Source: Planctomycetota bacterium
GTDB lineage: Bacteria; Planctomycetota; Phycisphaerae; Phycisphaerales; UBA1924
Length of the DNA: 64,000 nucleotides
NCBI GenBank assembly: GCA_023432465.1
Contig: JAEYUO010000117.1
Span: forward strand, 25,239-89,238
Reading direction: 5' to 3'
Shown here: piece after piece, positions 3,444 to 42,362 of the stretch
How the letters are laid out: the number at the start of each line of letters is the position of its first letter
Numbering within the stretch: the first letter of the stretch is position 1
Position numbers and translations under genes: made by a program
Notes under the pieces: generated by a model
Told to the model about the DNA's origin: nothing
The model's input: the letters and a program-made list of their open reading frames with translations, nothing else
Databases searched by the model: none

Positions 3444-3665
3444 GAAAGCGACCTCCCGGGGAATGGGGCGAATCGATACCCCCAATATCGGGTATGCGAA
3501 TTGAGATCTGCACTCCAGTGGGGTTTTGCAGCACGCCAGAGGCGGTATGGTCGCTGTGGATTCGCACGGCGTGGTTCTCGGACGAAGTGATCGGGATTGC
3601 GAGTGGACTCTGTCCGGTCAGCTTTCAATGATTCCTGAAAACTGAATCAGGAGCAAGGGCGAGCA

Positions 3666-5123: not shown

Positions 5124-5719
5124 GCGTCGGCGAGGTCTGCGGATGTCTCTGCGACCATCTTGGCTCGGCGCGCCAGCCAGAATCGCCGCACCGACCAGCC
5201 GAGGAAGCCGAGTCCCATCAGGCAGAGGATCACCTCGATCTCGTGCTCGCTCACTTCTGTGAAGAGTCGGCTCGCGGCGTGACCCGCGAAGTATCCGATC
5301 AGCCCGATGATCAGTGACCAGGCGGCTGCACCGATCAGGTTGTAGACGAAGAACCGTCGTTGCGGGTAGCCCGCCATGCCAAGCACGATGGGCGTCAGGA
5401 AGCGGACCCCGGGCACAAATCGGAACGCGAGAAGCAGCCATCGCTCGTGGATCGCGACCTGCATGAGGATCCACTTTGCCCGAGGCTGCCACTTGGGGGA
5501 GCGGTCCAGGATCAACCGGCCCTTGAGCCGTCCGAAGATAAAGCCCACCTGGTCTCCGAGCATTGCGCCCAGCCAGGCGAGCAACAGCACCAGCGGCAGG
5601 GAGAGATAGCCGCGGTGCGCGAAGTAGCCTGCGAGCAGCAGCACCCCCTCCCCTTCCAGACAGGTGCCGATGAAGACGGCCAGGTAGCCATACTGCTGGA
5701 TGATCTGTTCGAGTGTCAT
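5066..5719 (-). CDS. DedA family inner-membrane protein
   Basis: It shows 'YGYLAVFIGTCLEGEGVLLLAG' and 'RFVPGVRFLTPIVLGMAGYPQRRFFVYNLIGAAAWS'. Its start overlaps the stop of the upstream lipoprotein gene by 4 nt. Confidence 0.8.
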   Translation of the reverse strand: MTLEQIIQQYGYLAVFIGTCLEGEGVLLLAGYFAHRGYLSLPLVLLLAWLGAMLGDQVGFIFGRLKGRLILDRSPKWQPRAKWILMQVAIHERWLLLAFRFVPGVRFLTPIVLGMAGYPQRRFFVYNLIGAAAWSLIIGLIGYFAGHAASRLFTEVSEHEIEVILCLMGLGFLGWSVRRFWLARRAKMVAETSADLADAQRETLTVMDAGRGSRGAS

Positions 5720-6195
5720 CGGGTGGGCTGGTCATCCTCGCCCGCGAGCTTGATCTGGATTCGCCCATCCGAGTCGCTTGCGGGCGGAACCTCAGGGGTT
5801 ATCCACTCGCGCGTCTTGAGACTCAGCTGCGCAGGCCCGAACACCACCGGCGCGCGGCCGGTTGCCCAGACCACGATCCGGAACTCGCGTTCGTCGAGGA
5901 CGGTCACGGTGACGAGTCCGGTGTGATCCGTCGTGCCAGCGGAAGAAGACGGCCCGGTCTGGCCCAGGATGGATGCGGCGGAGAAGGAGTGATCCCTCGA
6001 GGTTGTCTCCGCAGCGACCGCCGCGCCTTCGATTGGTCGGTGTGTGGCGTGGTCGCGGACGAGCACCCGGACCTGGACCGGAGAGCCTCCGGGGGAACGA
6101 AAGATCCCGCTTTCTGCGGTGCATCCCGAGATGCACGCGGCCACGCCGGCGAGGGCCAGGAGGAGCAGGAGCGAGGTTGGTGTGGGGATCGCCAT
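5716..6195 (-). CDS. Hypothetical lipoprotein
   Basis: It has a signal peptide with lipobox 'LLLLLALAGVAACISGC'. It is probably co-transcribed with dedA. Confidence 0.6.
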   Translation of the reverse strand: MAIPTPTSLLLLLALAGVAACISGCTAESGIFRSPGGSPVQVRVLVRDHATHRPIEGAAVAAETTSRDHSFSAASILGQTGPSSSAGTTDHTGLVTVTVLDEREFRIVVWATGRAPVVFGPAQLSLKTREWITPEVPPASDSDGRIQIKLAGEDDQPTR

Positions 6196-6305
6196 GAGGA
6201 GCCTGAGGGCCTAACATCCCGCCCGCTTTGCCGCCGCGGTCCGTCCGTGGCGTCTTGAGCGGGCCGTGACGAGACCTACACGATACCCGGATCAGGACCT
6301 CGACG

Positions 6306-6866
6306 ATGAAGGCCATTGACTGTCGACAAGGCTACGGCGTGAAGATGGACGGCAAGCTGTGCGTCATCTCCGGCTATGAGTTTCGGAACCCCGGCAACCT
6401 CCGTTCGTTCGTCAACTTGAAGTTCAAGAACGTGAAGGATGGCGGGCAGTTCGAGCGCCGTTTTCAGCCGAGTGAAGACATCGAGGTGGTGGACCTTGAT
6501 CGGCGCGAGATGGAGTACCTGTACTCCGACAGCCATGGCGCGACGTTCATGGACACCGAGACCTTCGATCAGGTGGTCATTCCGGCGGACGTGCTGGGCG
6601 ATGCTTTGCTTTATCTGCGGCCCAATGGCATGACGATAGTGCTGAGCCATGACGGCAATCCGATCACGATCGAACTGCCGGCATCGGTGGATCTCAAGAT
6701 TACCGAGTGCCCGCCGGGCATCAAGGGCGCGACGGTCACGAATCAGCTCAAGGATGCGGTCTGCGAGACCGGGCTGAAGACGCGCGTTCCCGGCTTCATC
6801 GAGCAGGGCGAGACGATCCGCGTCAGCACGGCTGACGGTTCGTACCAGTCTCGCGCGAAGGAGTGA
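6306..6866 (+). CDS. efp: Translation elongation factor P
   Basis: 186 aa with an EF-P-like N-terminus 'GYGVKMDGKLCVISGYEFRNPGNLRSFVNLKFKNVKDG' and three-domain length. Confidence 0.9.
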   Translation: MKAIDCRQGYGVKMDGKLCVISGYEFRNPGNLRSFVNLKFKNVKDGGQFERRFQPSEDIEVVDLDRREMEYLYSDSHGATFMDTETFDQVVIPADVLGDALLYLRPNGMTIVLSHDGNPITIELPASVDLKITECPPGIKGATVTNQLKDAVCETGLKTRVPGFIEQGETIRVSTADGSYQSRAKE

Positions 6867-6898
6867 GCCTGGCGTGCGCTCCTGAGCGCAGCGCTGGA

Positions 6899-7441
6899 TC
6901 AGGCGGTGAAGAGCTCCACGATCTGGCCGGCCAAGTCATCGGCCGTGCGTGTTCCGACTTCGATCACGTGTGTCGCCACGCGCTGGTAGAGGGCGTCGCG
7001 TGCATGGAAGATCTGCTCGATTTCGTCAAGCGTTCCCGCATCGGTGAGCGAGGGACGGGTGGTAATGTCGGTCGCGGCCAGTCGCGCCCGCAGAATCGCC
7101 GGGCTCGCCCGCAGGTAGATGATGACCGCCTGACCGCCATCGCGAGCGAGCCTGAGCATCCGCTCCGCTCCGGGCGCGGTAGGCGTTCCGCCTCCGAGCG
7201 CGTGGACCACGCCGGTGCCTGAGAGAAGACCGGGAAGCTGCATGGCCTCGGTGTTTCGGAAGGCCTGCTCGCCGTGCTGTTTGAAGGCCTCCCCCGCCGT
7301 CCTGGCGCCGAGCAGGAGCGCTGTGTCGTCGTCAAGGTCCGCGAAGGGCCTCCCGAGCATCTGCGCCACACGACGGCCGAGCGTGGACTTTCCGCTGCCG
7401 CGCAGGCCAATGAGTATCAAGTTCGTGCCGGGCACGTTCAT
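6899..7441 (-). CDS. aroK: Shikimate kinase
   Basis: It has the P-loop 'LILIGLRGSGKSTLGRRVAQMLGRPFADLDD' and is 180 aa. Confidence 0.85.
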   Translation of the reverse strand: MNVPGTNLILIGLRGSGKSTLGRRVAQMLGRPFADLDDDTALLLGARTAGEAFKQHGEQAFRNTEAMQLPGLLSGTGVVHALGGGTPTAPGAERMLRLARDGGQAVIIYLRASPAILRARLAATDITTRPSLTDAGTLDEIEQIFHARDALYQRVATHVIEVGTRTADDLAGQIVELFTA

Positions 7442-8079
7442 GCGTCCAGTTCCGCATCCGCCCTCCGCACCGCCCGACAGAACGCCTCGATCATGTCAAG
7501 GTCCTTCACTCCGGGGGAACTCTCCACTCCGCTTGAGACATCCACCGCGAAGGGCCGCACGACCCGGATCGCCTCACCCACGTTCTCCGGGTTCAGCCCT
7601 CCGGCCAGGATCAGCGGTTTGCTCAGACGCTCGCGTGCCGCGGCGAGCTTTGTCCAGTCGAAGCTCGTTCCCTGGCCGCCCGCCGAGCCATCGACGAGGA
7701 TGGCATCGACTTCATCGATGCGGTCCCATCGCTCGAGGTCATCGGCGATCGTCGTAGGGTCGAACCGAACGGCCTTGATGACGTTTGGTCCACACTGCTT
7801 GACGAGGTCTTCGGGTTCGTGGCCGTGAAGCTGGGACATGTCTGTCGGGCACTCTTCTTCGATCATCATAAAGCGGTCGATATCCGCATTCACAAAGAGC
7901 CCGACGCTTGAGACAAACGGCGGGAGCATCCCGACGAGTTGCCACGCCTCATCGGGCTCGATGTATCGGGGGCTCTGGGGGTAGAAGACCAGTCCGATGG
8001 CGTCGGCCCCGGCATCCGCCGCGGCGAAGGCCGACTCTTCATCGCGAACTCCGCAGATTTTGATCCGTGTTCGTGCCAT
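7438..8079 (-). CDS. trpF: Phosphoribosylanthranilate isomerase
   Basis: It carries 'RIKICGVRDEESAFAAADAGADAIGLVFYPQSPRYI' and overlaps aroK by 4 nt. Confidence 0.85.
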   Translation of the reverse strand: MARTRIKICGVRDEESAFAAADAGADAIGLVFYPQSPRYIEPDEAWQLVGMLPPFVSSVGLFVNADIDRFMMIEEECPTDMSQLHGHEPEDLVKQCGPNVIKAVRFDPTTIADDLERWDRIDEVDAILVDGSAGGQGTSFDWTKLAAARERLSKPLILAGGLNPENVGEAIRVVRPFAVDVSSGVESSPGVKDLDMIEAFCRAVRRADAELDA

Positions 8080-14417: not shown

Positions 14418-14451
14418 GGCCCCGGCAAATGCCGGGGCCTTTTCTTGTTTT
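14418..14451 (+). terminator. Rho-independent terminator between the two pyrophosphatase genes
   Basis: Stem GGCCCCGGC-AAAT-GCCGGGGCC followed by TTTTCTTGTTTT. Confidence 0.65.
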
Positions 14452-14495
14452 GGCCGGGGAGGGGGATAAACTGGGCTTCAAACGGAGACCAAACC

Positions 14496-17306
<2,811 letters not shown>

Positions 17307-17334
17307 GCCACCCGTCCATCCAGGCAAAAACAAC

Positions 17335-17375
17335 AACCCCCGGCCCATGAGGACCGGGGGTTGTGCTTTTCAGCG
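17335..17375. terminator. Bidirectional intrinsic terminator hairpin
   Basis: 10-bp stem CAACCCCCGG / CCGGGGGTTG. It is followed by TGCTTTTC on the + strand and by TTGTTGTTTTTGCC on the - strand. Confidence 0.6.
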
Positions 17376-17751
17376 TTCGGGCCAGGCCTTTTCGGGCCGA
17401 CTCCGTCGAGCGGCCGCACTCAGCGGCTTGGCCCCTTCAGACAATCCTTAAGCACTGGATCACCTCCTTCCCAAAAGACCTTCCGGCCATCACGGGGTTG
17501 TCTGCCCGCTGCCGGTGTTCTTTCCCGCGGACCGTCGCCCGCGGCTCATCGCCCGAGTTGTGATCATCAACCCGGTCGTCGCGATTCCCGGTCTTCGCCG
17601 AAGACGTGGTTCTCACGCCGCGGCGGGGCCGTTCCACGCGATTGCTTCCAACAGTATCGCCCACAATCGGGGCGACGCAACATTCTTCGTACGGAAAACA
17701 GGCATGGTTCGACAGATTCCGGCAATAGGTGGTCAAATCGGTGTCGGTTCG

Positions 17752-17949
17752 CTATCTCTCCAGATCGTCGAACGCGCCCTTGGCGGCCTGTTCATCCAGA
17801 TACTTCTGGAAATCGCCGGTTTTGTACGAGATGAAGCAGAAGGCGTGGTGCAGCGCGAGCCACTCCATGTCGCTGGGGTCTTCATCGAGGTCTTTTCGCA
17901 GCCGGTTCAGCTCTGCCAGAAACATCTCCGCCTTGATTGGCTTGGCCAT
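17752..17949 (-). CDS. Small acidic hypothetical protein (65 aa), last gene of the znu operon
   Basis: Internal ATG 17949 of ORF 17752..18033 is preceded by GGAGGTGA. The product begins 'MAKPIKAEMFLAELNRLRKDLDEDPSDMEWLALHHAFCFISYKTGDFQKYLDEQ...'. It starts 38 nt after the znuB stop. Confidence 0.5.
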   Translation of the reverse strand: MAKPIKAEMFLAELNRLRKDLDEDPSDMEWLALHHAFCFISYKTGDFQKYLDEQAAKGAFDDLER

Positions 17950-17986
17950 AGTCACCTCCATCAGGAGCGATCGTAGATCGGCCAGC

Positions 17987-18856
17987 TCAGGCCGCCGCGC
18001 GACGGGAGCCTGCCCATCCCCATACCGCCGCAAGGGCGAACATCAGCGTCAGGACGAGCACCATGCTCGGCCCCGCCTGCCAGTTCAGTTCGATGCTCGC
18101 AATGAACCCGCCGATCAGCCCTGCGACGCCCGCACCTACGGACAACGCAACCACGGCCCACAGCCGATCGCTCAGTCGAAGCGCGATCGCACCCGGCAGG
18201 ACGAGCAGCGCTGTGGCGAGGATGACCCCTGCGAGTTTCATCGCCGTCACCACGGAGAGAGTCAGCAGGATCATCAGTGTCAGCTTCATGCGCTTCGCGG
18301 GCACACCAAAGGCCGCCGCCGAGTCCTCATCGAATGTCCAAAAGAGCATGGGTCTCCGCCACCACCACGCCGCGAGGGCAATCGCGCTCGCAAGCGCCCA
18401 GCCCGCCATGGCTTCGCGTTCTCCGGCAACGAGGATGGATCCGAACAGGATCGACTCCCAGCTTGTCTGCGAGCCGCTCGCCTGCACGAGCACCGCACCA
18501 AGGGCCATCGAGCCCACGAGGAACAGGCCGATCGCGGTGTCCACCGGCGTGGTTCGGCGGTCTGAGACGCTCGCCATGCCGAGCGCGGCGGCGATGCAGA
18601 ACGCGACGATGACGGCAAACTCCGCCGCGCCGCCGGGGCTGATCCACCCGGCCGCGCCGAGCACCGCGGCGATTCCGATGCCGCCGAACGCCGAGTGGCT
18701 CACCCCCTGGCCGACGAATCCGAGTCTCTTGACCACCACCAGCGGGCTCAGGATCCCGCACATGACGGTGACGCTGAGGCCCGCGACGAGGGCGGTGAGC
18801 ACGATGTGCCGCATGTCGGCAAGGTCGGGATCGGTCAGCAGGGCATAAGTCTCCAT
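17987..18856 (-). CDS. znuB: Metal (Zn/Mn) ABC transporter permease, ABC-3 family
   Basis: It is a polytopic membrane protein with 'ILSPLVVVKRLGFVGQGVSHSAFGGIGIA'. It is adjacent to the ATPase and TroA-like binding protein genes. Confidence 0.8.
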   Translation of the reverse strand: METYALLTDPDLADMRHIVLTALVAGLSVTVMCGILSPLVVVKRLGFVGQGVSHSAFGGIGIAAVLGAAGWISPGGAAEFAVIVAFCIAAALGMASVSDRRTTPVDTAIGLFLVGSMALGAVLVQASGSQTSWESILFGSILVAGEREAMAGWALASAIALAAWWWRRPMLFWTFDEDSAAAFGVPAKRMKLTLMILLTLSVVTAMKLAGVILATALLVLPGAIALRLSDRLWAVVALSVGAGVAGLIGGFIASIELNWQAGPSMVLVLTLMFALAAVWGWAGSRRAAA

Positions 18857-18858
18857 GC

Positions 18859-19776
18859 TCAGGCTTGCCCCTTTCGTTTGGCGCTCACGCCAAGCTGAAC
18901 GGGCGGCCCAGCCGCGGGGATGTGCTCATGCTCTTCGGTGCAGCACTCAGCGGCGCTGTGGGCGTGCACGTGCATCCCCGTCAACGTTCCCGGCGCGCCG
19001 GCGACCTCATGGCTGAAGAGCTCGGCGAGAACTTGCGGGGTCAAACCCTGCGGAGCGGCATGCGCGTGCAGGCGACGCGCCAGGCAGGCGACGCGGTCGC
19101 TGCCCGCGACGATCGCACGAAGGTCGTGGCTGACCACGATCATGGTGACGGCCATTTCGGCATGCACCCTCGCGAGCAGATCCGCAAACACTCTCTGGCC
19201 GACGGCATCGATTCCGACCATGGGCTCATCCAGCACGAGAATCCGCGCCTGGGCGGCGAGCGCTCGCGCGATCATCACCCGCTGGAGCTGTCCACCGGAG
19301 AGCTTGCCGGCGGGCCTGTCGGCGAAGTCGGTCGCGCCGACGAGTTCGATCATGTGTGCAACCCGCTGGCGTGTTGCCGCGGTGATTCTCTGCCATGGTC
19401 TGCATCGCCATGCAGCGCCGAGCGTGACGAGCTCGCGGGCTGACATGGGCATGCCGAGTTCGGCCTCCAGCCGCTGGGGCACATACCCGATCACACCGGC
19501 TCGTCGCGCCTGATCGGGGGGCATGCCGAGCACCCGGATCGTGCCGGTGTTTCCGCGGAGCAGACCCAGGCAGAGCTTGAGTAGTGTGCTCTTGCCACCG
19601 CCGTTGGGTCCGAGGATGCCGAGCCGCTCGCCTTGATTGACGCGCAGGCTGATGTTGTCGAGCACGCTCCCCTCGTGCCCGGGATAGGCAAAGCTCACGC
19701 CGGTGCACTCAACGGCCGGAGGGCCTTGAGCGGTGGTGGGCGCGGAGGAAGCAGGGTTTGAAGCGGTGGGGGGCAT
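18859..19776 (-). CDS. znuC: Metal ABC transporter ATP-binding protein with His/Cys-rich tail
   Basis: Walker A 'GPNGGGKSTLLK', signature 'LSGGQLQRVMIARAL' and Walker B 'ILVLDEP' are present. The C-terminal tail reads 'HVHAHSAAECCTEEHEH'. Confidence 0.85.
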   Translation of the reverse strand: MPPTASNPASSAPTTAQGPPAVECTGVSFAYPGHEGSVLDNISLRVNQGERLGILGPNGGGKSTLLKLCLGLLRGNTGTIRVLGMPPDQARRAGVIGYVPQRLEAELGMPMSARELVTLGAAWRCRPWQRITAATRQRVAHMIELVGATDFADRPAGKLSGGQLQRVMIARALAAQARILVLDEPMVGIDAVGQRVFADLLARVHAEMAVTMIVVSHDLRAIVAGSDRVACLARRLHAHAAPQGLTPQVLAELFSHEVAGAPGTLTGMHVHAHSAAECCTEEHEHIPAAGPPVQLGVSAKRKGQA

Positions 19777-19817
19777 GCGTACTCGCGCCGCGGGGAAACG
19801 GTCCCGCCGCGGAGAGT

Positions 19818-20819
19818 TTACTCGCTCTTGGCGGGCTTCCGCCCGAGCCCCTTCTCCAGCGACGCAAGATTTGATTCCATCATGCGGAACCAGTCGCCAT
19901 CTCCCAGGGGATCAAGCAGGAGCACGGGCACCTTGGTGCGTTCGGCGATTCGCTTGCCCGCCGCCTGAGAAAGCTGAGGCTCGACAAAGACGGCCTTTGC
20001 ACCTCGCTGGCGGATCGCGGCGATCGCGGCCTGAACAGCCTTGTTGGTCGGCTCCTGGGCGTTCAGCCCCGCGATGGCGATGGTGCTGAGTGAGTAGCGT
20101 CGTGACATCCAGCCATAGGCGTCGTGCCCAACCACGAGCGTGCGCGTTTCGGCGTTGTCCGCCGCATCGCGATACGCGGCATCGAGAGCGTCGATCCGGT
20201 CGGCGAGCTGCCTGGCAGAGGCCAGGACCGGGTGCTCAGTCTCGGCGGATTCGCTGGCCGGAAAGCGCTTGGCCAGCTCGGGAGCCAGCTTCTCCACAAA
20301 CTTCTTCACCATGCCGGGGTCGAGCCACAGGTGCGGGTCCACCGCGCCGTGCAGACACTCTCCGTTGGGCCCGTGAGCGTGGGCGGCGTGGTCATTCGGA
20401 TCGGCCTGAACATCCACCAGGTCCGCCATGGTGACGGCCATGCGCGAATCGCTCGGGTTGTTCTTCAGGAACTTGTCGATCTGCGGCTCAAGACCGAGTC
20501 CGATGGTGATCACGAGATCCGCCCGGGTGATCGCCGTCAACTTCGCCGGCGGGATCTCGTAGCCGTGCTCGCTCACGCCGGGCGGGATGAGCATGTCCAC
20601 GGTGCTGCCACCGGGGAGGAGGGGCTGGATCAATCCCCGAAGGGGGGCGATCGACACCACGACGCGGAGGGGCCGCCACGTCGCTGTGGCGCTCTCCGGG
20701 GTGGCTGACGCCGCCGCGGGCTGAGCCTGCGACTGGAAAGACCCTGCGAGCCCCTGAGGAACGAAGGCGAGGGAGAGGGCCAGAGCAGCAAGAACGTGCC
20801 GGTTGAAGGTTCGGATCAT
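19818..20819 (-). CDS. znuA: Periplasmic metal-binding protein (TroA/ZnuA family)
   Basis: It has a signal peptide, 'SEHGYEIPP', the His-rich loop 'DPNDHAAHAHGPNGECLHGAVDPHLWLD' and 'GHDAYGW'. Confidence 0.8.
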   Translation of the reverse strand: MIRTFNRHVLAALALSLAFVPQGLAGSFQSQAQPAAASATPESATATWRPLRVVVSIAPLRGLIQPLLPGGSTVDMLIPPGVSEHGYEIPPAKLTAITRADLVITIGLGLEPQIDKFLKNNPSDSRMAVTMADLVDVQADPNDHAAHAHGPNGECLHGAVDPHLWLDPGMVKKFVEKLAPELAKRFPASESAETEHPVLASARQLADRIDALDAAYRDAADNAETRTLVVGHDAYGWMSRRYSLSTIAIAGLNAQEPTNKAVQAAIAAIRQRGAKAVFVEPQLSQAAGKRIAERTKVPVLLLDPLGDGDWFRMMESNLASLEKGLGRKPAKSE

Positions 20820-21016
20820 ACCTGTAGTATTGCCGGGACCACTGCTAGATGCAACTCAGTGGCGTTAAGGATCGGCGTGTCGGGCTTTCCGCGTCCATGG
20901 GTTCAAAGCCCGAGAAGTCCGACCAAGGGCGGCGGGCTGCTGGAAGAAGACGGGGCAAGCCGGGATCTGCTTGACGCTGCCCCTTTCAGGACTTACGGTG
21001 TTCTCCTGCCAACCCC

Positions 21017-21097
21017 GGCCGAGTGCCCGAGTGGTCTAAGGGGACGGATTGCAAATCCGTTGCGCAAGCTTCGTGGGTTCGAATCCCACCTCGGCCT
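21017..21097 (+). tRNA. tRNA with anticodon GCA (Cys) but class-II-like body (12-nt variable region)
   Basis: Hand fold. Acceptor stem is GGCCGAG/CTCGGCC. D arm is CCCGAGTGGTCTAAGGG. Anticodon stem is ACGGA/TCCGT with loop TTGCAAA. Variable region is TGCGCAAGCTTC. T arm is GTGGG-TTCGAAT-CCCAC. The discriminator is T and no CCA is encoded. Confidence 0.8.
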
Positions 21098-21109
21098 TTC
21101 GGCAGACAC

Positions 21110-21140
21110 AACCCCCGCCCGTCGGGGGTTGTTCGTTTTT
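21110..21140. terminator. Hairpin terminator between the tRNA and the convergent giant gene
   Basis: Stem AACCCCC / GGGGGTT with a 7-nt loop, followed by GTTCGTTTTT on the + strand. Confidence 0.55.
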
Positions 21141-21158
21141 GGTTCGGAGCCCGATCAT

Positions 21159-24100
21159 TCAGGGGGCCCGGGTCAACTCCCGGATCCGGATGTTGCGGAA
21201 GCGCGCCCGGAGCTCGTCAGCCCGATCGCCGACGCTGTGGACCTGCAGGGCGATGCGTCCGCTCTGATCCAAGGCGTCAAACACATCCGCCGCGGGGATA
21301 CCGTTGAGCCATGTGCGGAGGCTCGGTCCGACCGCGACGATTCGCAGTTGGTTCCAGTCGTCGGACTTGAGAGCTCCGCGTGCGGCGGGGTTGTCGATGA
21401 GGGGATAGATCCAGCCGCGGCGTCCTTCGTCATAGATCCCGCCTGTGTACGCACGGGAGGTGGGATCGATCTCGACCTGATAGCCGACGAGCCGTCCGTC
21501 GCGGTTTGCAAAGCCGCCATCGACGGCGCTGCGGATCTGGATGCCGGAGTTGAACTCTGCATCGATCTTGAACTCGACGAGTAACTCGAAGTCTGCGTAC
21601 TCCTGTGTCGACACGAGAAACGTGTTCGGCGAGTTGGGTCTGGATGTGCCGACGATCGCGCCATCGTGTACCTGGAAGTCCGCATTGCCGCCGCGGACCG
21701 CCCACCCTTCAAGAGACTCGCCATCAAAGAGCGACCGCCATGGCCCCGGGCTTGAGGGAACAGGATCAAGAGGCGCGATCCAGACATTGCGGTATCGAAC
21801 CGGGCCTTCGGCTGCGGAAGCGTGGTCCTGAAGCCGGAGCGAGCCGACTTGCATCGGGAGGGTCGAGCGCTCCGCCCCGCCCGCCGCGGACCCTGTGGGG
21901 CCATTGACCTCAACGTCATCATGGATGAGGATGCCGTTCCAGTAGGCGGTGATCCGCGCGTTTGAGACTTTCTTGCCATCTTCGAAGCGGGGTGCGCGGA
22001 ACCAGATGTCGTAGGCCTGCCATGCCCCGGGCCCGGTCGAGGCATTGACCGAGGCGGGTTTGAGGTTGTAGATCGCTCCGGCTTCGTTGGCCTGGAGCGC
22101 ACGATCGCCCGCGAGCGTTCCGAGAACCTGGATTTCGTAGCGTTCCTGGAGGTACACGCCGCTGTTGCCGGCCATCTGGCCCTCGCCTCCGGGCGGCGAG
22201 TACCACTCCACGTGCAGTCGACAGTCGCCGAAGGCGTTGCGAGAGATGAGGTCGCCGGATCCGTTGCCGACTTCGACATACTCCGGCGCGGCGAGGATGT
22301 CCGCCTGTGAGCGCCCATCGGTGGGGCGATCCTTGAGCCGGGGCGCGAACTCGCAGGCGTTGCGGGCAGCGCGGCCGATGAGCACCGCGGCATCCGCGGG
22401 CGGGGGAACACCCACGCCCACACCGGACACCGTGGGATCGATCGGCGTACCGGCGAGGTTCGATGGGGCGGGAGGAGCCTGTGCGGGAATCTGGTTGAGG
22501 GTGTACCACGCTTCGGTAGACCACATGACATCGCCATCGACCGACTTCGGGTCGGTGCGCAGGAGGATGCAGGAGTCGGGCCTCAGCCCCTTGATCGTGA
22601 GCCGCACCGTCAGTCCGTCCGCCGACGGTGCGGCAGAGGTGATCTCGAGCTTCTGTTCCCGAGACTTCGGTCCGCCGTATTCCTTGGTGTGGATGTAGCC
22701 CCACTGGGAAGCGGTGAAGTTTGAGACATCTGAAAGCCAGGCGCGGTCGACCGGCTTGGTGAAGCGGATCTCGAACCCGTCTGCAAGGGCAGACACAGAG
22801 TGCATCTCGAAAGTGACAGTGTCGTTGGGGACGAGACGGTCCAGCCCGGATCGCTTGTCTTCCCAGGACCAGTTGCCACTTGCGCCGATGCCACCGGCGT
22901 AGAGCGCCCCGTCTGGTCCCCATGCCAGGCGGTTGATTCCGCAAGAGAGGCCCTGTGTGAATCGGAAGGCCGCGCCCTGCCAGACGCCGTTGACTTTCTC
23001 GAGCGCGACGCGACGAATGCCGCCGGCGGTGATCTCGCCGACGAACATCTGCCCGGCGTATGGGCCGCGATCGATCAGGAGCGGCTGGCTGGGCGAGTTG
23101 GCCAGTTCATTCTGAGGGAGGTAGATCGCCGTGGGCGCGCGGAGACGGTCGCCCCATGCGCTCGGCGAGCCGCCAGAGGGGAACCGCTCGGCGAGCTTCG
23201 GCACGAACTCGGTGTTGTTGTAATGGCCGAAGAACCTGCCCGGCACGACCTCTCCGAGTTGACTCGTGGACATCCATACGCCCTGGTTGTCGGAGTAGAA
23301 CATCGTGCCGGCAGGGCCCCAACCGATGCCGTTGGGCGTGCGCGTGCCCGCGGCGATGACACTGAAGGTTCCGGATGCGATGTCGGCTTCGATGATGCAG
23401 CCGCGCAGGGGACCGTTGGGGCCTGCGTTGGTCCCCATGCCCTCCCACGCGGGGGGCGCCATCGCCGTCGAGAGCGCGGCGTAGAGCTTGCCATCGCCAT
23501 GCAGCAGCCCGAAGGTGAACTGGTGGTAGTTCCAGCATTCCCAGCCGGAAGCGATGTCGCGGCGAGATTCGAAGAAGCCGTCGCCATCGGTGTCGGTGAG
23601 TTCTGAGATCGCGCAGCGATGAGAAACGTAGAGTTTGTCACCGACGGCCACAAGGCCGGAGGGTTCAAAGAGCCCGTCGGCGATGGGCACCACCTGCACC
23701 TTCGAAGGATCTCCCGTCGTGACATTGCTCAAGGCGTAGAGCTTGTCGGGGACTTTCGACTCGATGTCGGGCAGGTCGGTTTCGGTTCTTTGGAGCGGAC
23801 TGAAGGTGCCGACGACCAGCCGCCCGTCAGGCAGAAAGCACATCGCTCCGACTTTCGGAGAGAAATCCGGAGGCAGGATTGGTGTGAGCGTGAATGACGG
23901 ATGCACGCCCTCGACGGGCCGGCCATCGCCCGGGCGCCCCTCTTCAAACAGGCTCTTCACGCCGGGCGAGGTGACCCGCGCGGCATCGGCATCGGTTGAC
24001 AGCACCTCGGGCGTGATGAGCGAGAACTCGGGTGCGCCGGGGGGCTTCCATTCGAGGCGCAGCATGCGCCGTCCTCCGGAATCGAAGTGCTCGACCAGCA

Positions 24101-24527
24101 GCGCGTGCAGGCCCGCTTCGAGAAGTACGGGGCCGCTCTCTTTCGCGGTCGCGCCGTGGCGGCCGTCGTGATCAATCTCTACCTGATTGGCAATCAGGAG
24201 ACGCGAACCGTCATCGCTGGTGAGCCGAAAGCGGTATGTTCCCTTGTCCACGATTTTCAGATATCCCCGAACGTGGGTCAGGATGGGTGCGGGGAGATCC
24301 GGGAAGGGGTGCACTTCGCCCAGATCCAGTGTGGGAATGACCGTGTCAGCATTAGGTGTCTGGCTCGCGGCCAGCCGCGGAATCGAGCGTACATCGCCGC
24401 TGACCTGGTACACGCGAACAGTCAGACCGGGCATATGCTCGGCATCGGGCTGTTGACCGGCGAGCGCGCCAAGGGCGACAAGCGATACGGCAAGCCAGAT
24501 CGCTGCGGCAAGCAGGGGACTGTTCAT
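21159..24527 (-). CDS. Secreted multidomain protein: PA14 domain + quinoprotein (glucose/sorbosone) dehydrogenase-like beta-propeller + two DUF1080 (3-keto-disaccharide hydrolase-like) domains
   Basis: ORF 21159..24677. I moved the start to ATG 24527, which gives the signal peptide 'MNSPLLAAAIWLAVSLVALGALAG'. A PA14-like stretch 'TYRFRLTSDDGSRLLIANQVEIDHDG' is present. The propeller region carries 'DTDGDGFFE'. The C-terminal DUF1080-like repeats read 'HVEWYSPPGGEGQMAGNSGVYLQERYEIQVLG' and 'FELLVEFKIDAEFNSGIQIRS...GRIALQVH'. Confidence 0.8.
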   Translation of the reverse strand: MNSPLLAAAIWLAVSLVALGALAGQQPDAEHMPGLTVRVYQVSGDVRSIPRLAASQTPNADTVIPTLDLGEVHPFPDLPAPILTHVRGYLKIVDKGTYRFRLTSDDGSRLLIANQVEIDHDGRHGATAKESGPVLLEAGLHALLVEHFDSGGRRMLRLEWKPPGAPEFSLITPEVLSTDADAARVTSPGVKSLFEEGRPGDGRPVEGVHPSFTLTPILPPDFSPKVGAMCFLPDGRLVVGTFSPLQRTETDLPDIESKVPDKLYALSNVTTGDPSKVQVVPIADGLFEPSGLVAVGDKLYVSHRCAISELTDTDGDGFFESRRDIASGWECWNYHQFTFGLLHGDGKLYAALSTAMAPPAWEGMGTNAGPNGPLRGCIIEADIASGTFSVIAAGTRTPNGIGWGPAGTMFYSDNQGVWMSTSQLGEVVPGRFFGHYNNTEFVPKLAERFPSGGSPSAWGDRLRAPTAIYLPQNELANSPSQPLLIDRGPYAGQMFVGEITAGGIRRVALEKVNGVWQGAAFRFTQGLSCGINRLAWGPDGALYAGGIGASGNWSWEDKRSGLDRLVPNDTVTFEMHSVSALADGFEIRFTKPVDRAWLSDVSNFTASQWGYIHTKEYGGPKSREQKLEITSAAPSADGLTVRLTIKGLRPDSCILLRTDPKSVDGDVMWSTEAWYTLNQIPAQAPPAPSNLAGTPIDPTVSGVGVGVPPPADAAVLIGRAARNACEFAPRLKDRPTDGRSQADILAAPEYVEVGNGSGDLISRNAFGDCRLHVEWYSPPGGEGQMAGNSGVYLQERYEIQVLGTLAGDRALQANEAGAIYNLKPASVNASTGPGAWQAYDIWFRAPRFEDGKKVSNARITAYWNGILIHDDVEVNGPTGSAAGGAERSTLPMQVGSLRLQDHASAAEGPVRYRNVWIAPLDPVPSSPGPWRSLFDGESLEGWAVRGGNADFQVHDGAIVGTSRPNSPNTFLVSTQEYADFELLVEFKIDAEFNSGIQIRSAVDGGFANRDGRLVGYQVEIDPTSRAYTGGIYDEGRRGWIYPLIDNPAARGALKSDDWNQLRIVAVGPSLRTWLNGIPAADVFDALDQSGRIALQVHSVGDRADELRARFRNIRIRELTRAP

Positions 24528-24534
24528 GGCGGAA

Positions 24535-24726
24535 CTATAACGGATGAGGGCCGCGGGCAGGATCCGGAGCGGGCGTTGCCGCCGGCTCGTCATCGTCAAA
24601 GAGCATGCGGTGGGACGGGGTGTCGAGATCGTCAAACTGTCCCTGCCGGACGGCGTAGGCGAAGGCGACAACGGCACACCCGGCGAGGATGAATGCCAGC
24701 GGCAGAATGACGAAGAGCACGCTCAC
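24535..24726 (-). CDS. ccoS: cbb3 oxidase maturation protein CcoS/FixS (63 aa)
   Basis: Only the last 63 codons of track ORF 24535..25362 are used. A GTG start at 24726 overlaps the ccoI stop (GTGA). The product '(M)SVLFVILPLAFILAGCAVVAFAYAVRQGQFDDLDTPSHRMLFDDD' matches the CcoS pattern of a TM helix followed by SGQFDDLD. Confidence 0.8.
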   Translation of the reverse strand: MSVLFVILPLAFILAGCAVVAFAYAVRQGQFDDLDTPSHRMLFDDDEPAATPAPDPARGPHPL

Positions 24727-27293
24727 GGTCTGCCTCCTCTGCAACGGAAGGCATCGGTGCGCATGCAGATCGCGAGAACTGTCAGTGAGCTCGCGGGCAT
24801 GACAATCGCCGCAATGAGCGGGTTGATCAGCCCGGCCACCGAGAGTGTACCTGCCACGATGTTGTAGCAGAGAGATGCCCCAAGGCAGACTTTGATCGTC
24901 CGCATGGTCAACCGGGCACCGGTCGTGAGTTCGACGATCGATCCGAGGCCCGGCTTTGACAGGTACACATCCGCCGCGGCAAGGCTTGCCTCGGCACCGC
25001 CGTGGACGGCGATGCCAACGCTCGCCATCGCGAGTGCCGCGGCGTCGTTCACACCATCGCCCACCATCACCACAGGCTGGCCGCTTTGGGCCTGGAGCGT
25101 GCGGACGGCCTCGAGCTTGCCCTCGGGGCTGACTCCGCCGCGAGCCTGCGATGCAGGGACTCCGAGCTCGCTCGCAACGGCGCGAACGACGCCGGGGTGA
25201 TCGCCGGAGAGGATCTCCGGTCGCCACCCGGAACTGCGGAGCGTCTGCAGTGCGGCGGCCGTATCCGTGCGGATCGGATCGCCCAGACCAAGACAGGCGA
25301 CCACCCGGTGGCCCTCCGATACAAGGACCGGTGTCAGCCCGGAAGTAGCCAGCGATGTGCACCGGTTGGCCGATTCATCGTCCAGCCCGCCGAGGCGAGC
25401 GGCGATGAAGGCCGGCGACCCGATGGTCAGGGTGCGGCCGTTGACGGTGCCTTCGATCCCGGAGCCAAGCGTCTGGAAGGCTTGAACCTTCGTGGGGATC
25501 GATGGCGAGAAGGCCTCGGATACCGCCCGGGCGATGGGGTGGTTCGACTGACTCTCGATCGCGCCGATGAGAGGCTTCAGGGCCTCATCACCACTCCAGC
25601 GGACAACGCTCATTCGGCCTTCGGTCAGCGTGCCGGTCTTATCCAGGAGCATTGTGCCGGGGGTCGCGACCACCTGGAGCGCCTCACCGCCCTTGATCAG
25701 GATGCCCCGCCGAGCAGCGCGGCCGATCGCGACTGTGAGCGCGAGTGGTGTGGCCAGACCCAGCGCGCAGGGGCACGTAACCACCAGCAGCGCGGTTGCG
25801 TGATCGATCGCGAGCGACGGGTTTGATGGGTGCAGCCAGAGCCAGAGGCCGAGCGTGATCGCGGCGAGGGCGAGCATTCCGGCTAGGAACCACCCCGCGA
25901 TGCGATCCGCCAGCCGAACGATCGGGGCCTTCTGATCCAGCGATTGCTGGACCAGCAGCATCAGTCTGCCAACTCGTGTCTGGGTTCCCGTCGCCTCGAC
26001 GCGGACCCGGATCGTTGAGCCGAGGTTGACGGTCCCGGCACAGACGTGATCACCGGTCTCGACACTCACCGGTCGAGACTCTCCCGTGAGCAGGGACTGA
26101 TCGACCTGTGTCAGCCCGGCCACAACAACTCCATCGACCGGGACGGACTCTCCCGGGCGGACCTCCACAATCTGCCCGCAGAGGATGCTCTGAACCGAGA
26201 CCTCGCGGATCGTGCCGTTGCTCGCCGGATCCGTGTCGCTCTCCTCCACGATGCGGGCGCTGGTGGGTGTCAGCGAGAACAGCATCTCGACCGCATCCGA
26301 GCTGCGTCTCTGCTGGCGATGCTGGATGAAGCGGCCCACCAGGAGCAGGAACACCAGCACGCTCAGCGTGTCGAAGTAGATCTCGCCGGTGCCGCGGATC
26401 GTGTTGACAACTCCCCAGATGCCGCCAGCGCCCAGGGCAAGGGCGATGGGGATATCCAGGTGCATGGTCCGGGTGCGCACCGCCGCCCACGCGGAGCGGA
26501 AGAACACCGACCCCGGCCAGACAAGCGCGATCACCGTGATCGCCATGCTGCTGACGCGGAACAGCGTTGCGTAGGCCGGTTCCATGGCATCGAACAGGCC
26601 CGCGTAGAGCGCGAGCCCCAGCAGCATGACGTTGCCCGCGCACGCCCCCGCCACACCGAGTCGGATCAAACGCTTGCGGTCATCGGCCCGGCGAGCCTCG
26701 CGGTCGGTTGCATCCCGTGCGGGATGTGGGGAGTACCCAAGAGCATTGAGACTCCGAGCGACCTGGGACAACGCCACACGCCGATCTTCCCAGACGATGC
26801 GGACCATGCCGCGGCGGAGATCGAGCCGCGATTCCACAACTCCCGGGCACACACGAGGGAGCCTCTCCACAAGCCACACACACGCGGAGCAGTGAACGCC
26901 TTCGATGAACAGTTCGACGGTGCGCAGCCTCGTCGATCCGTCTGCGCTCGTCGTGCCTTCGTCATCGGCTTTGGCCGGCGCTTCGAGAGAGCGGCAGTAC
27001 AGCGCTTGAAACGCAGCGTCGTCGAACTCCGCGAACCGGGCGTTGGTCGATCGCGCAGGAGTGCGCTCTTCCTCGCTTTCAAGGCGTTTGCGGAGCTCGT
27101 AGTACCGGTCGAGGCCGCAGGAGTGGATGATCTCGTAGGCGGTGCGGCAACCGGCGCAGCAGAACTGTCGCTCTGCGCTGGGATCAATCAGGCCCGCGGG
27201 CACGGGGAGCATGCAGTGCGTGCAGGAGACGTGTCGCGCGGGCGACGCGGCCAAGTTTGAAGGAGCCTGCGAAGACGTCGTGTGCGGACTCAT
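24723..27293 (-). CDS. ccoI: Copper-translocating P1B-type ATPase CcoI/FixI
   Basis: Motifs 'VVTCPCALGLATP', 'DKTGTLTEG' and 'MVGDGVNDAAALA' are present, along with N-terminal Cys pairs. It sits inside the cco maturation cluster. Confidence 0.9.
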   Translation of the reverse strand: MSPHTTSSQAPSNLAASPARHVSCTHCMLPVPAGLIDPSAERQFCCAGCRTAYEIIHSCGLDRYYELRKRLESEEERTPARSTNARFAEFDDAAFQALYCRSLEAPAKADDEGTTSADGSTRLRTVELFIEGVHCSACVWLVERLPRVCPGVVESRLDLRRGMVRIVWEDRRVALSQVARSLNALGYSPHPARDATDREARRADDRKRLIRLGVAGACAGNVMLLGLALYAGLFDAMEPAYATLFRVSSMAITVIALVWPGSVFFRSAWAAVRTRTMHLDIPIALALGAGGIWGVVNTIRGTGEIYFDTLSVLVFLLLVGRFIQHRQQRRSSDAVEMLFSLTPTSARIVEESDTDPASNGTIREVSVQSILCGQIVEVRPGESVPVDGVVVAGLTQVDQSLLTGESRPVSVETGDHVCAGTVNLGSTIRVRVEATGTQTRVGRLMLLVQQSLDQKAPIVRLADRIAGWFLAGMLALAAITLGLWLWLHPSNPSLAIDHATALLVVTCPCALGLATPLALTVAIGRAARRGILIKGGEALQVVATPGTMLLDKTGTLTEGRMSVVRWSGDEALKPLIGAIESQSNHPIARAVSEAFSPSIPTKVQAFQTLGSGIEGTVNGRTLTIGSPAFIAARLGGLDDESANRCTSLATSGLTPVLVSEGHRVVACLGLGDPIRTDTAAALQTLRSSGWRPEILSGDHPGVVRAVASELGVPASQARGGVSPEGKLEAVRTLQAQSGQPVVMVGDGVNDAAALAMASVGIAVHGGAEASLAAADVYLSKPGLGSIVELTTGARLTMRTIKVCLGASLCYNIVAGTLSVAGLINPLIAAIVMPASSLTVLAICMRTDAFRCRGGRP

Positions 27294-38719: not shown

Positions 38720-41700
38720 TCAGGTGGGGCAGCCCGCGAACCACGCGGCGAGGAAGGCGAAGATGTCCGACACTTCGATACCGCCCACACCATCAAAGTT
38801 CGCGGCGGGTTCCATCGCAAACCACGCCGAGAGGAATCCGAAGATATCGGGGACATCTGCGGTGCCGTTGGCGTTCCAATCGGCCGGGCACGGCGGGAGT
38901 TCGCATTCATCGGGCACGCCGCTCTCGTCTTCATCAAGGGAGTACCCGAGGGCGATGTCGCAACTGTCGATCCTGCCATTGTTGTTGCAGTCGGGCTCGA
39001 GCGGGGTGACAGGGACCGCGAAGGTGATGCTCAGCACCGGCCCGAGCGCGCCGCCATCGGCTTCCGATGACCAAAACTCCACAATCGGACCGGATGTTCC
39101 GACCGTCTCGACGATGTAGCCGTAGTTCAGCGAAGGGTTGGCCATCCAGAAGCGAAACGCGTCGGTGATCCCGCTGCCGGCAAACTCGATGCGGGACTCG
39201 ACGTTTGTCATCGCGACTTCACCATCCGTCGATCCGGCGGCATCAACGAACGTTTGGCTGGGGTGATACTCCGCCGGGGAAGTACCGGTGCCGCCGAGCA
39301 ATCGCGCGCCGGTGATCGTCCATGGAACCGTGTTGAAGCGTGCATGATTGTTCGTCACAGCGCCGGGACAACTGATGCAGTTGTCCCGCTCCGGGTCTCC
39401 CCAGGGCTTGAGCACGCGTCGGACCTCGAGCGTCGTTGGGGCTCCGAAGTCCGGAAGCACACTGAATCGGGCATCGAGGATCAGGTTGGGGTCACTGAGA
39501 CCACAGTCGGCCGCGAGCACATCTGTGAAGCCAAAGCGAACAAACCCCTTGGTCTCCGGGACCGTGGTCGGATTGATAATCATCCGGTCGAGCGAGGTGT
39601 TCGCCTGGCCCTGACGGGGATCGAACGATGCATCGGACGCAACGCCGGGGAAAGTCTGGATTCCCGCATCACCGAAGGTCACGGTGATCGTTCCGTCCAT
39701 CACAAAAGACTTGCGGTTGTCAAGGTCCTCAACGTCCAGAACGTTTGCCTGCGGCGCACCGAGCGCCTGCGCGAGATCGGCGATCGGACCCGGGATGAGT
39801 GTGTATGTGCTCGTGCACCCGCTGTACACCAGCGGAACGGTCAGCCGCACCCGGTTGCCAAGCTCGGCGTTGACCGTGGCCGCGGTGGGTTCAAAGACGC
39901 TTGTGCCGTCGGTCAGCGTGTAGTTCCCGGGGTCGGAAGCGGTGACAGGATCCACGGCCTCGCTGAACACAACCTCAACGGAGGTCATGCTGACCGGCAG
40001 CATGGCGACGACCCGCGGTGGCGTGCTGTCCGTCAGGGTGGTGATGTCGACCGCCGCAAGGTTTCCATCGAGTTCGTTCAGGAATGCCTCCAGGTCGCGC
40101 ATCAGGGCGTGCGAGAGCTGACTCACGTTGCCATGCAAGTCTGGCTGCAGACCGCCCGTGTCGGTTGAGCGCAGGACGTCCCACATCTTCAGCCCGACCT
40201 GACGCGTGATCGCCGCGCCACTGATCGGCACGACCTGGCGGAACCCGCCCGAGTCCCACGATGAGACGAGGGAGGGCGTGTTGAAGGCGGGTCCCTCGAA
40301 GTCCGGCAGCGGTCTGAACCCACCCACATTGTGAAACGCGAAGTCGGTGTACGCCGGCGCGGGGTGACAGGTGATGCATCCCGTGGCCAGCGGCCCCTCC
40401 GTGAGCTGATACAGCATCGCGCCACGGATCGCCGCCTCCGTGAGGGTGCCATCGGTGTTTCGATGCGGGCTTCGCATCAGCGGAGGAAGACTGAGGACAA
40501 ACGCGGCCATCGCATCGAGCTCGGGACTCAAGCCCGCGTTCGGCGCCCCGAGCGGATCGTTCGGGAGCCCGAGGAATCCCGACCCCAGCATGAAGTTGCC
40601 GCTGAACGTGAACTCGAAGTCCTGGACTTCATCGCGGTCCCCGGATCGATGGAGCTGGCCGCGGCCGTTGGCCTGCGGAGCCATCGAGATCGATTGCCCC
40701 CGCATGGTGAGCGTCTTGCGGCGACCGGCGTTGAGCGTCGAGAAGTCCCACACAAAGCCGTCGGTCTCTCCGCCGGGGTGGCACGATGCGCAGGAGACTT
40801 TCTGATTACTGCTGATGCGAAAATCGTTGCTCGAGTTGAAGATCTTCGCGCCGAGCAGAATGTCCGCATCCAGGGGCTCTTGCGACGCCACAGCCGCAAC
40901 GCGGGCGATCTCCGTCCATGTTTGTGCGTCCAGGATCGAAACGTCACGAGAGAGGTAGTTCAGCACGTAGACGCGGTCGGCTACGGGCGACCATGCCAGA
41001 CCGATGGGATTGTCGCCGACGGGCAGTTCCTGGAGCGGCGGCGCATTGAACGGTTTGGCGATGCCTGTGGAGCTGGGCACAACCAGCACATCGTTGCTGT
41101 GCGCCATCGAGATCAGCGCAACCGAGCCGTCGCTGTTGAAGGCGATGTCGGATGGACCCGCGACGCCGGCATTCCAGCCATCGCCCAGGAGCTGGCTGGT
41201 CTGGCTGTGGGCGATCACAGCGCTGAACACGACTCGGTTGTTCAGATCAAACTCGAGGGAAGCGAGATCGTGCTTGAGCACGGCCGCCTGGATCACCGTA
41301 TCCGAACTGAAGGGGTTCGCTCGGAAGTTGTGCAACTGCATCGGAATCCACAGTTCGCTGGTCGTGGGACGAACAGCGATCTGCGAGGTGGGGAAGATCC
41401 ACCCGCCCTCGGGAACGCGAGGGTCCTCGCTGGGAATTTGAAATCCGAACTTCGGATCGATCGAGCGGATCCGGTGCACCGTGCCCATGGTCAGGGTGTC
41501 CGTGTCGATGACACTGACATAGCCGTGATCGCCGTCGTTGAACTGGTGCGCGACGGAGGCGGTGGTCGCCCCCGTAAACGTGATGGACAGAGGCTTGGCC
41601 GCCATGTTCTCGAACGACTTGAGGACCGTGCGAGTCGTCGCGTCCACGATGGAGACCGTGTCGGATCGATACATCGCGATGAGCGCGGAATCGCCGGATG

Positions 41701-42124: not shown

Positions 42125-42362
42125 GGACCCTCTTCGTGCGTTCCGGCTTCACGGGAAACTCAGGCGCCCTGCACCGACAGCGTCAGAGCGGTGGCTCCCG
42201 GATCGCAGAAAGAAGCAGAACGTAGCCTACCCCATGATCCGGCAAAGACGAAGAGGTTCCAGAAACGATTCGTGAATCCGAATACGATCAGAATGCGAAC
42301 ATTCTTGTTCGCTTGGTCCCGTCAGCCGCGTCATATCGTCGGTGGGTCCGCAGGAGGGTTTG

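Follow-up and report, generated by a model that had tools for sequence, protein, structure and literature searches.

A tRNA-Cys gene with a long variable region was analyzed within a 64-kb stretch of planctomycete contig JAEYUO010000117.1 (the window, by which we mean the whole stretch). Judged from sequence comparison, this gene very probably encodes a working tRNA-Cys that would decode UGU and UGC, would be charged by cysteinyl-tRNA synthetase (CysRS) and would descend from a class-I tRNA-Cys by the addition of a GNRA hairpin at position 45. Its long arm is a lineage trait, not an error.

ARAGORN called one tRNA within the window, tRNA-Cys(gca) at 21017-21097 on the + strand. The Rfam model RF00005 (gathering score, 29) aligned to the same interval over model positions 1-71 of 71, not truncated, with 60.6 bits. 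The parts of the gene are as follows.

21017..21097, + strand: tRNA-Cys(GCA) gene, 81 nt, a 7/5 cloverleaf with a long variable region, U73 and no encoded CCA (ARAGORN, Rfam RF00005 and fold)
21026..21042, + strand: D arm, CCC-G-AGTGGTCTA-A-GGG, with a 3-bp stem, G13·A22 and a 9-nt loop (sequence read and Rfam)
21044..21060, + strand: anticodon arm, ACGGA-UUGCAAA-UCCGU, with the anticodon GCA at 21051-21053 and A36-A37-A38
21061..21072, + strand: variable region, TGCGCAAGCTTC, read as U44-[GC-GCAA-GC]-UUC, with the 8-nt hairpin at 21062-21069
21073..21089, + strand: T arm, GUGGG-UUCGAAU-CCCAC (sequence read and Rfam)
21097, + strand: discriminator U73, T in the DNA (sequence read)

The Rfam alignment has stems of 7 bp (acceptor), 5 bp (T) and 5 bp (anticodon), and 10 nt of the variable region are inserted relative to the model. 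The acceptor stem, GGCCGAG/CTCGGCC, is followed by U8 and G9, and G26 lies between the D and anticodon arms. The minimum free energy (MFE) fold gave the same cloverleaf (z = -2.55), with a 2-bp GC/GC stem capped by GCAA in the variable region. A preliminary description of this DNA, based on a hand fold, had claimed a 7/5 cloverleaf with a 12-nt variable region, GCA and U73, a D arm with a 3-bp stem, and a 2-bp variable stem closed by a GCAA tetraloop. All of these claims were confirmed. A covariance model could have restored a normal short variable loop; Rfam instead keeps the 10-nt insertion, so the hand fold stands.

For class II, the variable region must reach 10 nt (PMC3333845). With 12 nt and a stem-loop, the variable region of the window tRNA has both the length and the shape of this class (at least 10 nt, stem-loop). 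Its isotype, Cys, lies outside Leu, Ser, bacterial Tyr and Sec, to which reviews confine the long arm, with tRNA-Cys placed in class I (PMC4033280, PMC3333845, PMC4810241). The sole long-arm Cys exception described is the 8/4 selC* tRNA (Mukai et al. 2017, PMC5389517), which, like the window tRNA, is a Cys tRNA with U73 and a long arm, its anticodon being GCA or UCA. The selC* tRNAs have an 8/4 acceptor/T arrangement with a bulged A51a, and their anticodon and acceptor stems are longer; they are linked to selB*/cysS* and found in anaerobic Firmicutes and deltaproteobacteria (PMC5389517). The window tRNA does not belong to them: its acceptor, T and anticodon stems are of 7, 5 and 5 bp, its neighbors are znuABC and a PA14 gene, and its phylum is different. 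In openly accessible full-text literature, our searches turned up no earlier account of a 7/5 long-arm tRNA-Cys. The window tRNA is a real, lineage-wide structural variant whose function is probably ordinary.

Relationship to class-I tRNA-Cys

Metagenomes were scanned for genes in which this D loop and anticodon arm go with a short variable region, and at least 120 loci matched; among the matches listed, 119 had a class-I tRNA-Cys, mostly of 74 nt. These tRNAs match the window tRNA in U73 and in the acceptor stem, D arm (the "Tyr-like" one), anticodon arm and T arm. Outside the variable region, the best class-I matches listed (L136, L155, L197 and L207) depart from it at just 2 of the 69 positions. 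The class-I loop reads UAUUC in 69 and GAUUC in 20 of the 119 listed. The window tRNA reads U44-GCGCAAGC-U-U-C48, that is, the class-I UAUUC loop with A45 swapped for an 8-nt hairpin. Given its 67/69 identity to class-I tRNA-Cys, the "Tyr-like" D arm included, the window gene is an ordinary planctomycete-type tRNA-Cys with a hairpin inserted at position 45.

Other features agree with those of bacterial class-I tRNA-Cys (B. subtilis, E. coli and the 74-nt planctomycete type), namely GCA, U73, G1-C72/G2-C71/C3-G70, U32 and A37-A38, as well as the 3-bp D stem, purine13·A22 and the anticodon arm CGGAUUGCAAAUCCG. The difference is in the variable region, a 5-nt UAUUC loop in class I, a 12-nt hairpin in the window tRNA and up to 18 nt in its relatives. 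A 3-bp D stem with a purine13·A22 mismatch, which the preliminary description had read as pointing to long-arm tRNAs, is a general trait of bacterial tRNA-Cys, A13·A22 in E. coli. The tRNA-Cys core would be easily converted to a class-II shape because this stem and mismatch are already present. In the proposed course of events, the ancestor would be an ordinary class-I tRNA-Cys of this bacterial group, and the entry of a short GNRA-capped hairpin at position 45 would turn a 74-nt class-I molecule into an 81-88-nt class-II-shaped one.

Three of the class-I carriers could be placed. L148 is syntenic with a locus of a Planctomycetaceae metagenome-assembled genome (MAG), L024, and the metagenome contigs L163 and L200 are MoxR-linked and Phycisphaerales-like. 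The L024 tRNA-Cys itself (1765-1841; compare L148) has 77 nt and the same body, with an unpaired 8-nt variable region, UAUAUGUC, of intermediate length without a helix.

Distribution and conservation of the extra arm

The genome scan covered one genome per GTDB species; its pattern required a variable region of 8 nt or more after a Cys anticodon arm. It gave at least 119 stretches, a count that, like those of the metagenome scan, is a lower bound and not an estimate of frequency. By the taxon names of the records, 97 of the stretches listed were from Phycisphaerae, Phycisphaerales or Phycisphaeraceae, 17 from "Planctomycetota bacterium", 1 from a Planctomycetaceae MAG and 3 from other phyla. 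At the loci listed, ARAGORN called 115 tRNA-Cys(GCA) genes besides that of the window, with 95 distinct sequences. U73 was present in all 115 relatives with the 3′ end present. The anticodon-arm part GGATTGCAAATCC was fixed by the scan patterns, and its invariance among the matches is not independent evidence. The variable region, the window tRNA included, was of 12 nt in 27, 13 nt in 3, 14 nt in 34, 15 nt in 7, 16 nt in 40 and 17-18 nt in 2.

Long-arm tRNA-Cys was thus found in at least 113 species-level assemblies of the Phycisphaerales type (Phycisphaerales/Planctomycetota), and it is the usual tRNA-Cys of these genomes. Among the matches listed, five were chromosome-scale records, each with one long-arm match. 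The proposal in the preliminary description of a lineage-specific class-II tRNA-Cys was borne out, as this is the common form in Phycisphaerales with its extra helix kept by covariation. The description had also considered that the form might be ordinary across the phylum, which would leave it true without being novel; it is ordinary for the order but not for the phylum.

The nearest of the fetched loci, L110 (uncultured Phycisphaeraceae MAG) and L037 (Planctomycetota MAG), align collinearly with the window to the left and right of the tRNA, at 74-77% DNA identity. In both, the same long-arm tRNA-Cys sits between znuA and the PA14 gene, and both read GCA, not the GTA that would have pointed to an assembly error. 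The L056 tRNA is a 1-nt variant of that of the window, and the L105 tRNA is identical over the portion present. An assembly error at the anticodon is ruled out by GCA in the syntenic L110 and L037, in L056 and in more than 100 independent assemblies.

The extra arm was conserved as a helix. In every length class, U44 is followed by a stem of 2-5 bp, a tetraloop and an unpaired triplet that ends in UC. Most tetraloops are GNRA (GCAA, GAAA, GUAA, GGAA or GUGA), with CUUG or UUU in some. In the class with a 14-nt variable region (83-nt tRNAs, 26 distinct), each of the three arm pairs varies in both partners (G-C, U-A, A-U and C-G); 98.7% of the cells pair, as against 30-53% in slid controls, and none of 500 shuffles reached the observed values. 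Similar covariation was seen in the 16-nt class (85-nt tRNAs), except in a subgroup with a bulged U. In the 81-nt class, to which the window tRNA belongs, the 2-bp stem is paired in 21 of 21 distinct sequences, and the inner pair changes from C-G to G-C in four. Pair 12-23 of the D stem covaries among the relatives (C-G, A-U or U-A), and the acceptor and T helices also covary. The extra arm is therefore a selected helix, and these compensatory changes in the arm, acceptor, D and T helices are marks of a working tRNA.

The class-I and long-arm forms alternate. In many Phycisphaerales loci, tRNA-Cys adjoins a gene for a MoxR-type AAA ATPase. In L163 and L200, which have class-I tRNA-Cys, the MoxR protein is 65% identical to that of the window, and the tRNA is 2 kb from its gene. 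In a neighbor-joining (NJ) tree of MoxR without support values, they nest beside the long-arm carriers L076 and L006, and the two forms are patchy. Apart from UAUUC in L163 and U-GGGCUUGCCC-AUC in L076, the tRNAs of these two loci hardly differ. In two further loci, L079 (1659-1993) and L100 (3383-3684), an 81-nt long-arm tRNA-Cys is followed about 200 bp downstream by a 74-nt class-I tRNA-Cys. The alternating forms at the MoxR loci and the mixed tandem copies show that the arm was gained, lost or swapped more than once.

The tandem members in L079 and L100 are not recent duplicates of each other. The short copy in L079 has an A31·C39 mismatch and may be decaying. L008 and L094 have two long-arm tRNA-Cys genes each.

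Decoding and rival explanations

A73 and U35 are strong marks for tyrosyl-tRNA synthetase (TyrRS), and both are absent from the window tRNA. It has GCA, U73 and G1-C72/G2-C71/C3-G70, all of them conserved among its relatives. The identity elements for CysRS include U73 and GCA (Giege and Eriani 2023, PMC9976931); C3-G70 occurs in 55% of tRNA-Cys (PMC9976931). We expect that CysRS would charge the window tRNA through G34-C35-A36, U73 and G1-C72/G2-C71/C3-G70. CysRS is a class-I synthetase, and this class binds tRNA with the variable region facing the solvent. The extra arm may be tolerated because the core already has what class II needs (a 3-bp D stem and purine13·A22) and because CysRS would leave the variable region to the solvent. 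With the CysRS marks present, the TyrRS marks absent and an arm much shorter than that of tRNA-Ser, we take the window tRNA to be the cell's normal, and presumably only, tRNA-Cys. Ambiguous decoding appears unlikely because the Cys identity marks are invariant and the TyrRS marks absent.

The gene would be transcribed on its own, its leader being about 10 nt long, and CCA would be added post-transcriptionally. The candidate signals are as follows.

20971..20976, + strand: candidate -35 hexamer TTGACG (sequence read)
20994..20999, + strand: candidate -10 hexamer TACGGT (sequence read), about 10 nt of leader before G1
21108..21142, + strand: hairpin like that of an intrinsic terminator, 10 bp (7 GC), followed by TCGTTTTTGG

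The candidate promoter comes solely from a comparison of upstream regions. TTGACG, 17 nt and TACGGT are kept at an equal distance in the syntenic L037 and L110 and in L056, and TTGAC occurs within 70 nt upstream in 57 of 115 tRNA-Cys upstream regions. A sigma-70 consensus scanner called no promoter at the tRNA, and the candidate -10 hexamer matches the consensus at just 3 of 6 positions.

Several points weigh against an ordinary tRNA-Cys with an inserted hairpin. In the window tRNA itself the arm is minimal (2 bp and -1.3 kcal/mol when taken alone). The arm is dispensable in at least some lineages because class-I carriers nest among long-arm carriers in the unsupported NJ tree, and class-I and long-arm copies can possibly coexist in one assembly, as in L079 and L100. 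The scan counts are lower bounds from which no frequency follows. In addition, our view of the tRNA-Cys and tRNA-Tyr genes of this genome is limited to the window, which comes from a 71.8-kb metagenome scaffold.

Among the other explanations, one is compatible with Cys decoding: the hairpin might have been selected for something beyond decoding and spread by phages. It could act as an anti-determinant that wards off a tRNA-cleaving toxin or a phage nuclease, or offer a lineage-specific protein a place to dock. We regard this as possible but unlikely. The retention of the helix and its GNRA loops by compensatory change and the patchiness of the two forms in the MoxR tree agree with it, as do the associations with mobile elements. 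One of these concerns a site that overlaps the tRNA gene.

21043..21099, + strand: attP-like stretch of 57 nt, from G26 to 2 nt past U73, with 98% identity to L247 and L282

L282 (6331-8860; IMG/VR 3300034103_001682) and L247 (1480-2957; 3300044949_001417) carry a tyrosine integrase and a CI/S24-type repressor beside this 57-nt site, which includes the tRNA hairpin. Their hosts are probably close relatives of the window organism, and their attP would lie inside tRNA-Cys. In the genomes, four loci (L044, L074, L078 and L090) have the 3′ half of the tRNA alone, from the anticodon stem to U73. The L074 copy (3602-3644) is 37.6 kb from a full gene (L003, 1-1289) that abuts a tyrosine integrase on the same contig (CBDCYN010000030.1), which looks like an integrated island or prophage attached at tRNA-Cys. 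As at other tRNA-gene integration sites, the integrase adjoins the tRNA, and the far end of the element bears a second copy of the tRNA's 3′ portion; unlike at the usual ones, the exchanged segment includes the variable region, so that an arm swap is conceivable. Such elements could carry arm variants between hosts and overwrite the variable region because integration rebuilds the gene with the 3′ half of the element, hairpin included. No hairpin transfer was caught: both attachment (att) copies were readable in two cases, and their hairpins were identical.

Viruses also carry complete long-arm genes. The long-arm scan pattern, applied to viral contigs, gave 57 matches (L240-L296), and ARAGORN called tRNA-Cys in 53. 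The 52 measurable tRNA-Cys(GCA) have a hairpin variable region of 10-20 nt and always U73; CCA is encoded in 45, and nearly all lie within tRNA arrays. Class-I tRNA-Cys is commoner in viral contigs than the long-arm form, with at least 120 matches.

The selection of the hairpin for another role is opposed by several observations. No partner protein or nuclease was identified, the arms of 2-5 bp with differing loops argue against a sequence-specific ligand, arm-less lineages appear to do fine, and the two readable att pairs are identical in the hairpin. Taken in full, the proposal that the arm is a mobile selected module, spread by phages and islands, that shields tRNA-Cys from a nuclease or marks it for a lineage-specific partner is doubtful. 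If it held, the same pressure would explain the frequent long-arm tRNA-Cys in the tRNA arrays of lytic phages, and the gene would be a live example of a class-I tRNA becoming class II.

Charging by seryl-tRNA synthetase (SerRS), TyrRS or leucyl-tRNA synthetase (LeuRS), with UGY partly read as another amino acid, was suggested by two known systems. The nev-tRNAs and nov-tRNAs of nematodes and other eukaryotes (Hamashima et al. 2012, PMC3333845) share with the window tRNA a class-II shape, a class-I anticodon and conservation within a lineage, and the nematode ones carry Leu (PMC3333845). However, they have a Leu-type body, are weakly expressed and exist beside canonical tRNAs, whereas the window tRNA has a class-I tRNA-Cys body that agrees with its anticodon, at a conserved tRNA-Cys locus; it is not one of them. 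The allo-tRNAs (Mukai et al. 2017, PMC5389517) likewise combine a bacterial long arm with an anticodon other than Leu, Ser or Tyr, and in them a long arm with G73 or U73 may be a SerRS mark. They have an 8/4 or 9/3 arrangement with a 12-bp acceptor branch and SerRS identity; the window tRNA, arranged 7/5, does not belong among them. Its body is of the Cys type, not Leu, Ser or Tyr, and A73 and U35 are absent. Its arm (2 bp; 2-5 bp among the relatives) is shorter than the arms of bacterial tRNA-Ser, such as the 88-90-nt tRNA-Ser in L115 and L117. The long-arm gene is the sole tRNA-Cys seen at a conserved locus across more than 100 species, and replacement of Cys throughout the proteome would be strongly deleterious. 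Mischarging is very unlikely.

The preliminary description had also raised a tRNA-Tyr-derived gene recruited to Cys codons, in which a duplicated class-II tRNA-Tyr would have gained GUA to GCA and A73 to U73 and taken over Cys decoding. The window tRNA does resemble bacterial class-II tRNA-Tyr in silhouette, and its D arm (C10-G25, 3-bp stem, G13·A22 and 9-nt loop) and the geometry of its extra arm (one nt on the 5′ side, a short stem and a 3-nt 3′ tail ending in UC) resemble those of E. coli tRNA-Tyr. This proposal did not hold. The D, acceptor, anticodon and T arms are all found in abundant class-I tRNA-Cys with 2/69 differences, against 22/69 mismatches for E. coli tRNA-Tyr and 24/69 for B. 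subtilis tRNA-Tyr. The 3′ tail UUC is no more than the last three bases of the class-I UAUUC loop. The G1-G2-C3 acceptor and U32 are of the Cys type, and tRNA-Tyr has GUA, A73, C32 and another acceptor stem. The window tRNA is thus not a tRNA-Tyr by anticodon, discriminator or the mismatches to the E. coli sequence, and recruitment from tRNA-Tyr is extremely unlikely. The sole tRNA-Tyr among the fetched loci (8-kb pieces) sits on a Paracoccus plasmid, and none there is from Phycisphaerales.

A non-functional copy, that is, a pseudogene or an attachment-site remnant that resembles a tRNA, can be dismissed: such 3′-half repeats do exist (L044, L074, L078, L090, L247 and L282), but the window gene is full length with all five helices intact, a candidate promoter and terminator, a position kept in L110 and L037, and compensatory changes across species in its acceptor, D, variable and T helices.

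If decoding is that of an ordinary tRNA-Cys, which we judge most likely, the gene is of specialist interest only. An arm on a canonical 7/5 tRNA-Cys occurs across a bacterial order and in many phages, and sister lineages keep the arm-less ortholog. These natural class-I/class-II pairs of one isotype make the cost or benefit of gaining an arm testable: stability, modification, nuclease sensitivity and CysRS kinetics can be compared, as can rejection by SerRS, TyrRS and LeuRS. They bear on the old question of where class-II tRNAs, bacterial tRNA-Tyr among them, came from. Isotype models and annotation pipelines need to allow for tRNA-Cys of 81-88 nt in these genomes. For the engineering of tagged tRNAs, a short GNRA hairpin at position 45 marks a naturally validated insertion site.

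Other copies and the neighborhood of the gene

For the 3′-half copy in L044, the full gene is in L085 of the same MAG. In L078, the 3′-half copy has genes for Cas1 and a Cas9-like RuvC-III fragment (5529-7999) about 2 kb away, pointing to a CRISPR-Cas locus on the border of an integrated element. L282 and L247 are high-GC temperate-phage contigs.

The viral long-arm tRNA-Cys include several sequence families unrelated to the Phycisphaerales body. A Phycisphaerales-type long-arm tRNA-Cys is present in L251, a 122-kb viral contig with 45% GC. Cultured-phage records searched with the window tRNA gave no long-arm tRNA-Cys. In the Ruegeria phage vB_RpoS-V10 (L297, 1499-1586; MH015255.1, 15257-15344), there is an 88-nt tRNA-Lys(CUU) with a D arm of the class-II type and a long arm, AUGCGAAAGCACA. 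This is a second class-I isotype with an extra arm, and the array also has a normal 74-nt tRNA-Cys.

Outside Planctomycetota, long-arm tRNA-Cys was seen in tRNA arrays of Rhodobacteraceae, in a Marivivens MAG (L039, 57-140) and in L115 (4671-4753, - strand). L115 is a 535-kb plasmid of Paracoccus sp. ME4 with about 17 tRNAs within 8 kb; its long-arm copy was missed by ARAGORN and scored 40.8 bits with Rfam. L117 (Halpernia humi) has, on the - strand near 2205-2253, what looks like a chimeric remnant and not a gene: an anticodon arm of the Cys type joined to the 3′ portion of an adjacent tRNA-Ser(GGA).

In the window, the tRNA is flanked by znuA-znuC-znuB on one side and by a PA14/3-keto-disaccharide-hydrolase gene on the other. 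No second or partial tRNA-Cys copy, a sign of an integrated element, was found within the 64 kb, and the base composition across it is flat at about 65% GC. Metal-handling genes surround the tRNA (14445-27293): those for an H+-pyrophosphatase, znuB-znuC-znuA and a P-type heavy-metal ATPase with an HMA domain. The PA14/3-keto-disaccharide-hydrolase protein in the same interval has 1172 aa.

The window also has a MoxR gene, at a distance from the tRNA.

42342-43442, + strand: gene for a MoxR-type AAA ATPase, window copy

Its ortholog is the immediate neighbor of tRNA-Cys in most other Phycisphaerales, unlike in the window, and therefore the tRNA or the MoxR gene was relocated in the lineage of the window. 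The MoxR gene is adjoined on the - strand (38720-42124) by a gene for a secreted-looking protein of 1134 aa with two CxxCH heme-binding motifs and a dockerin-like C terminus.

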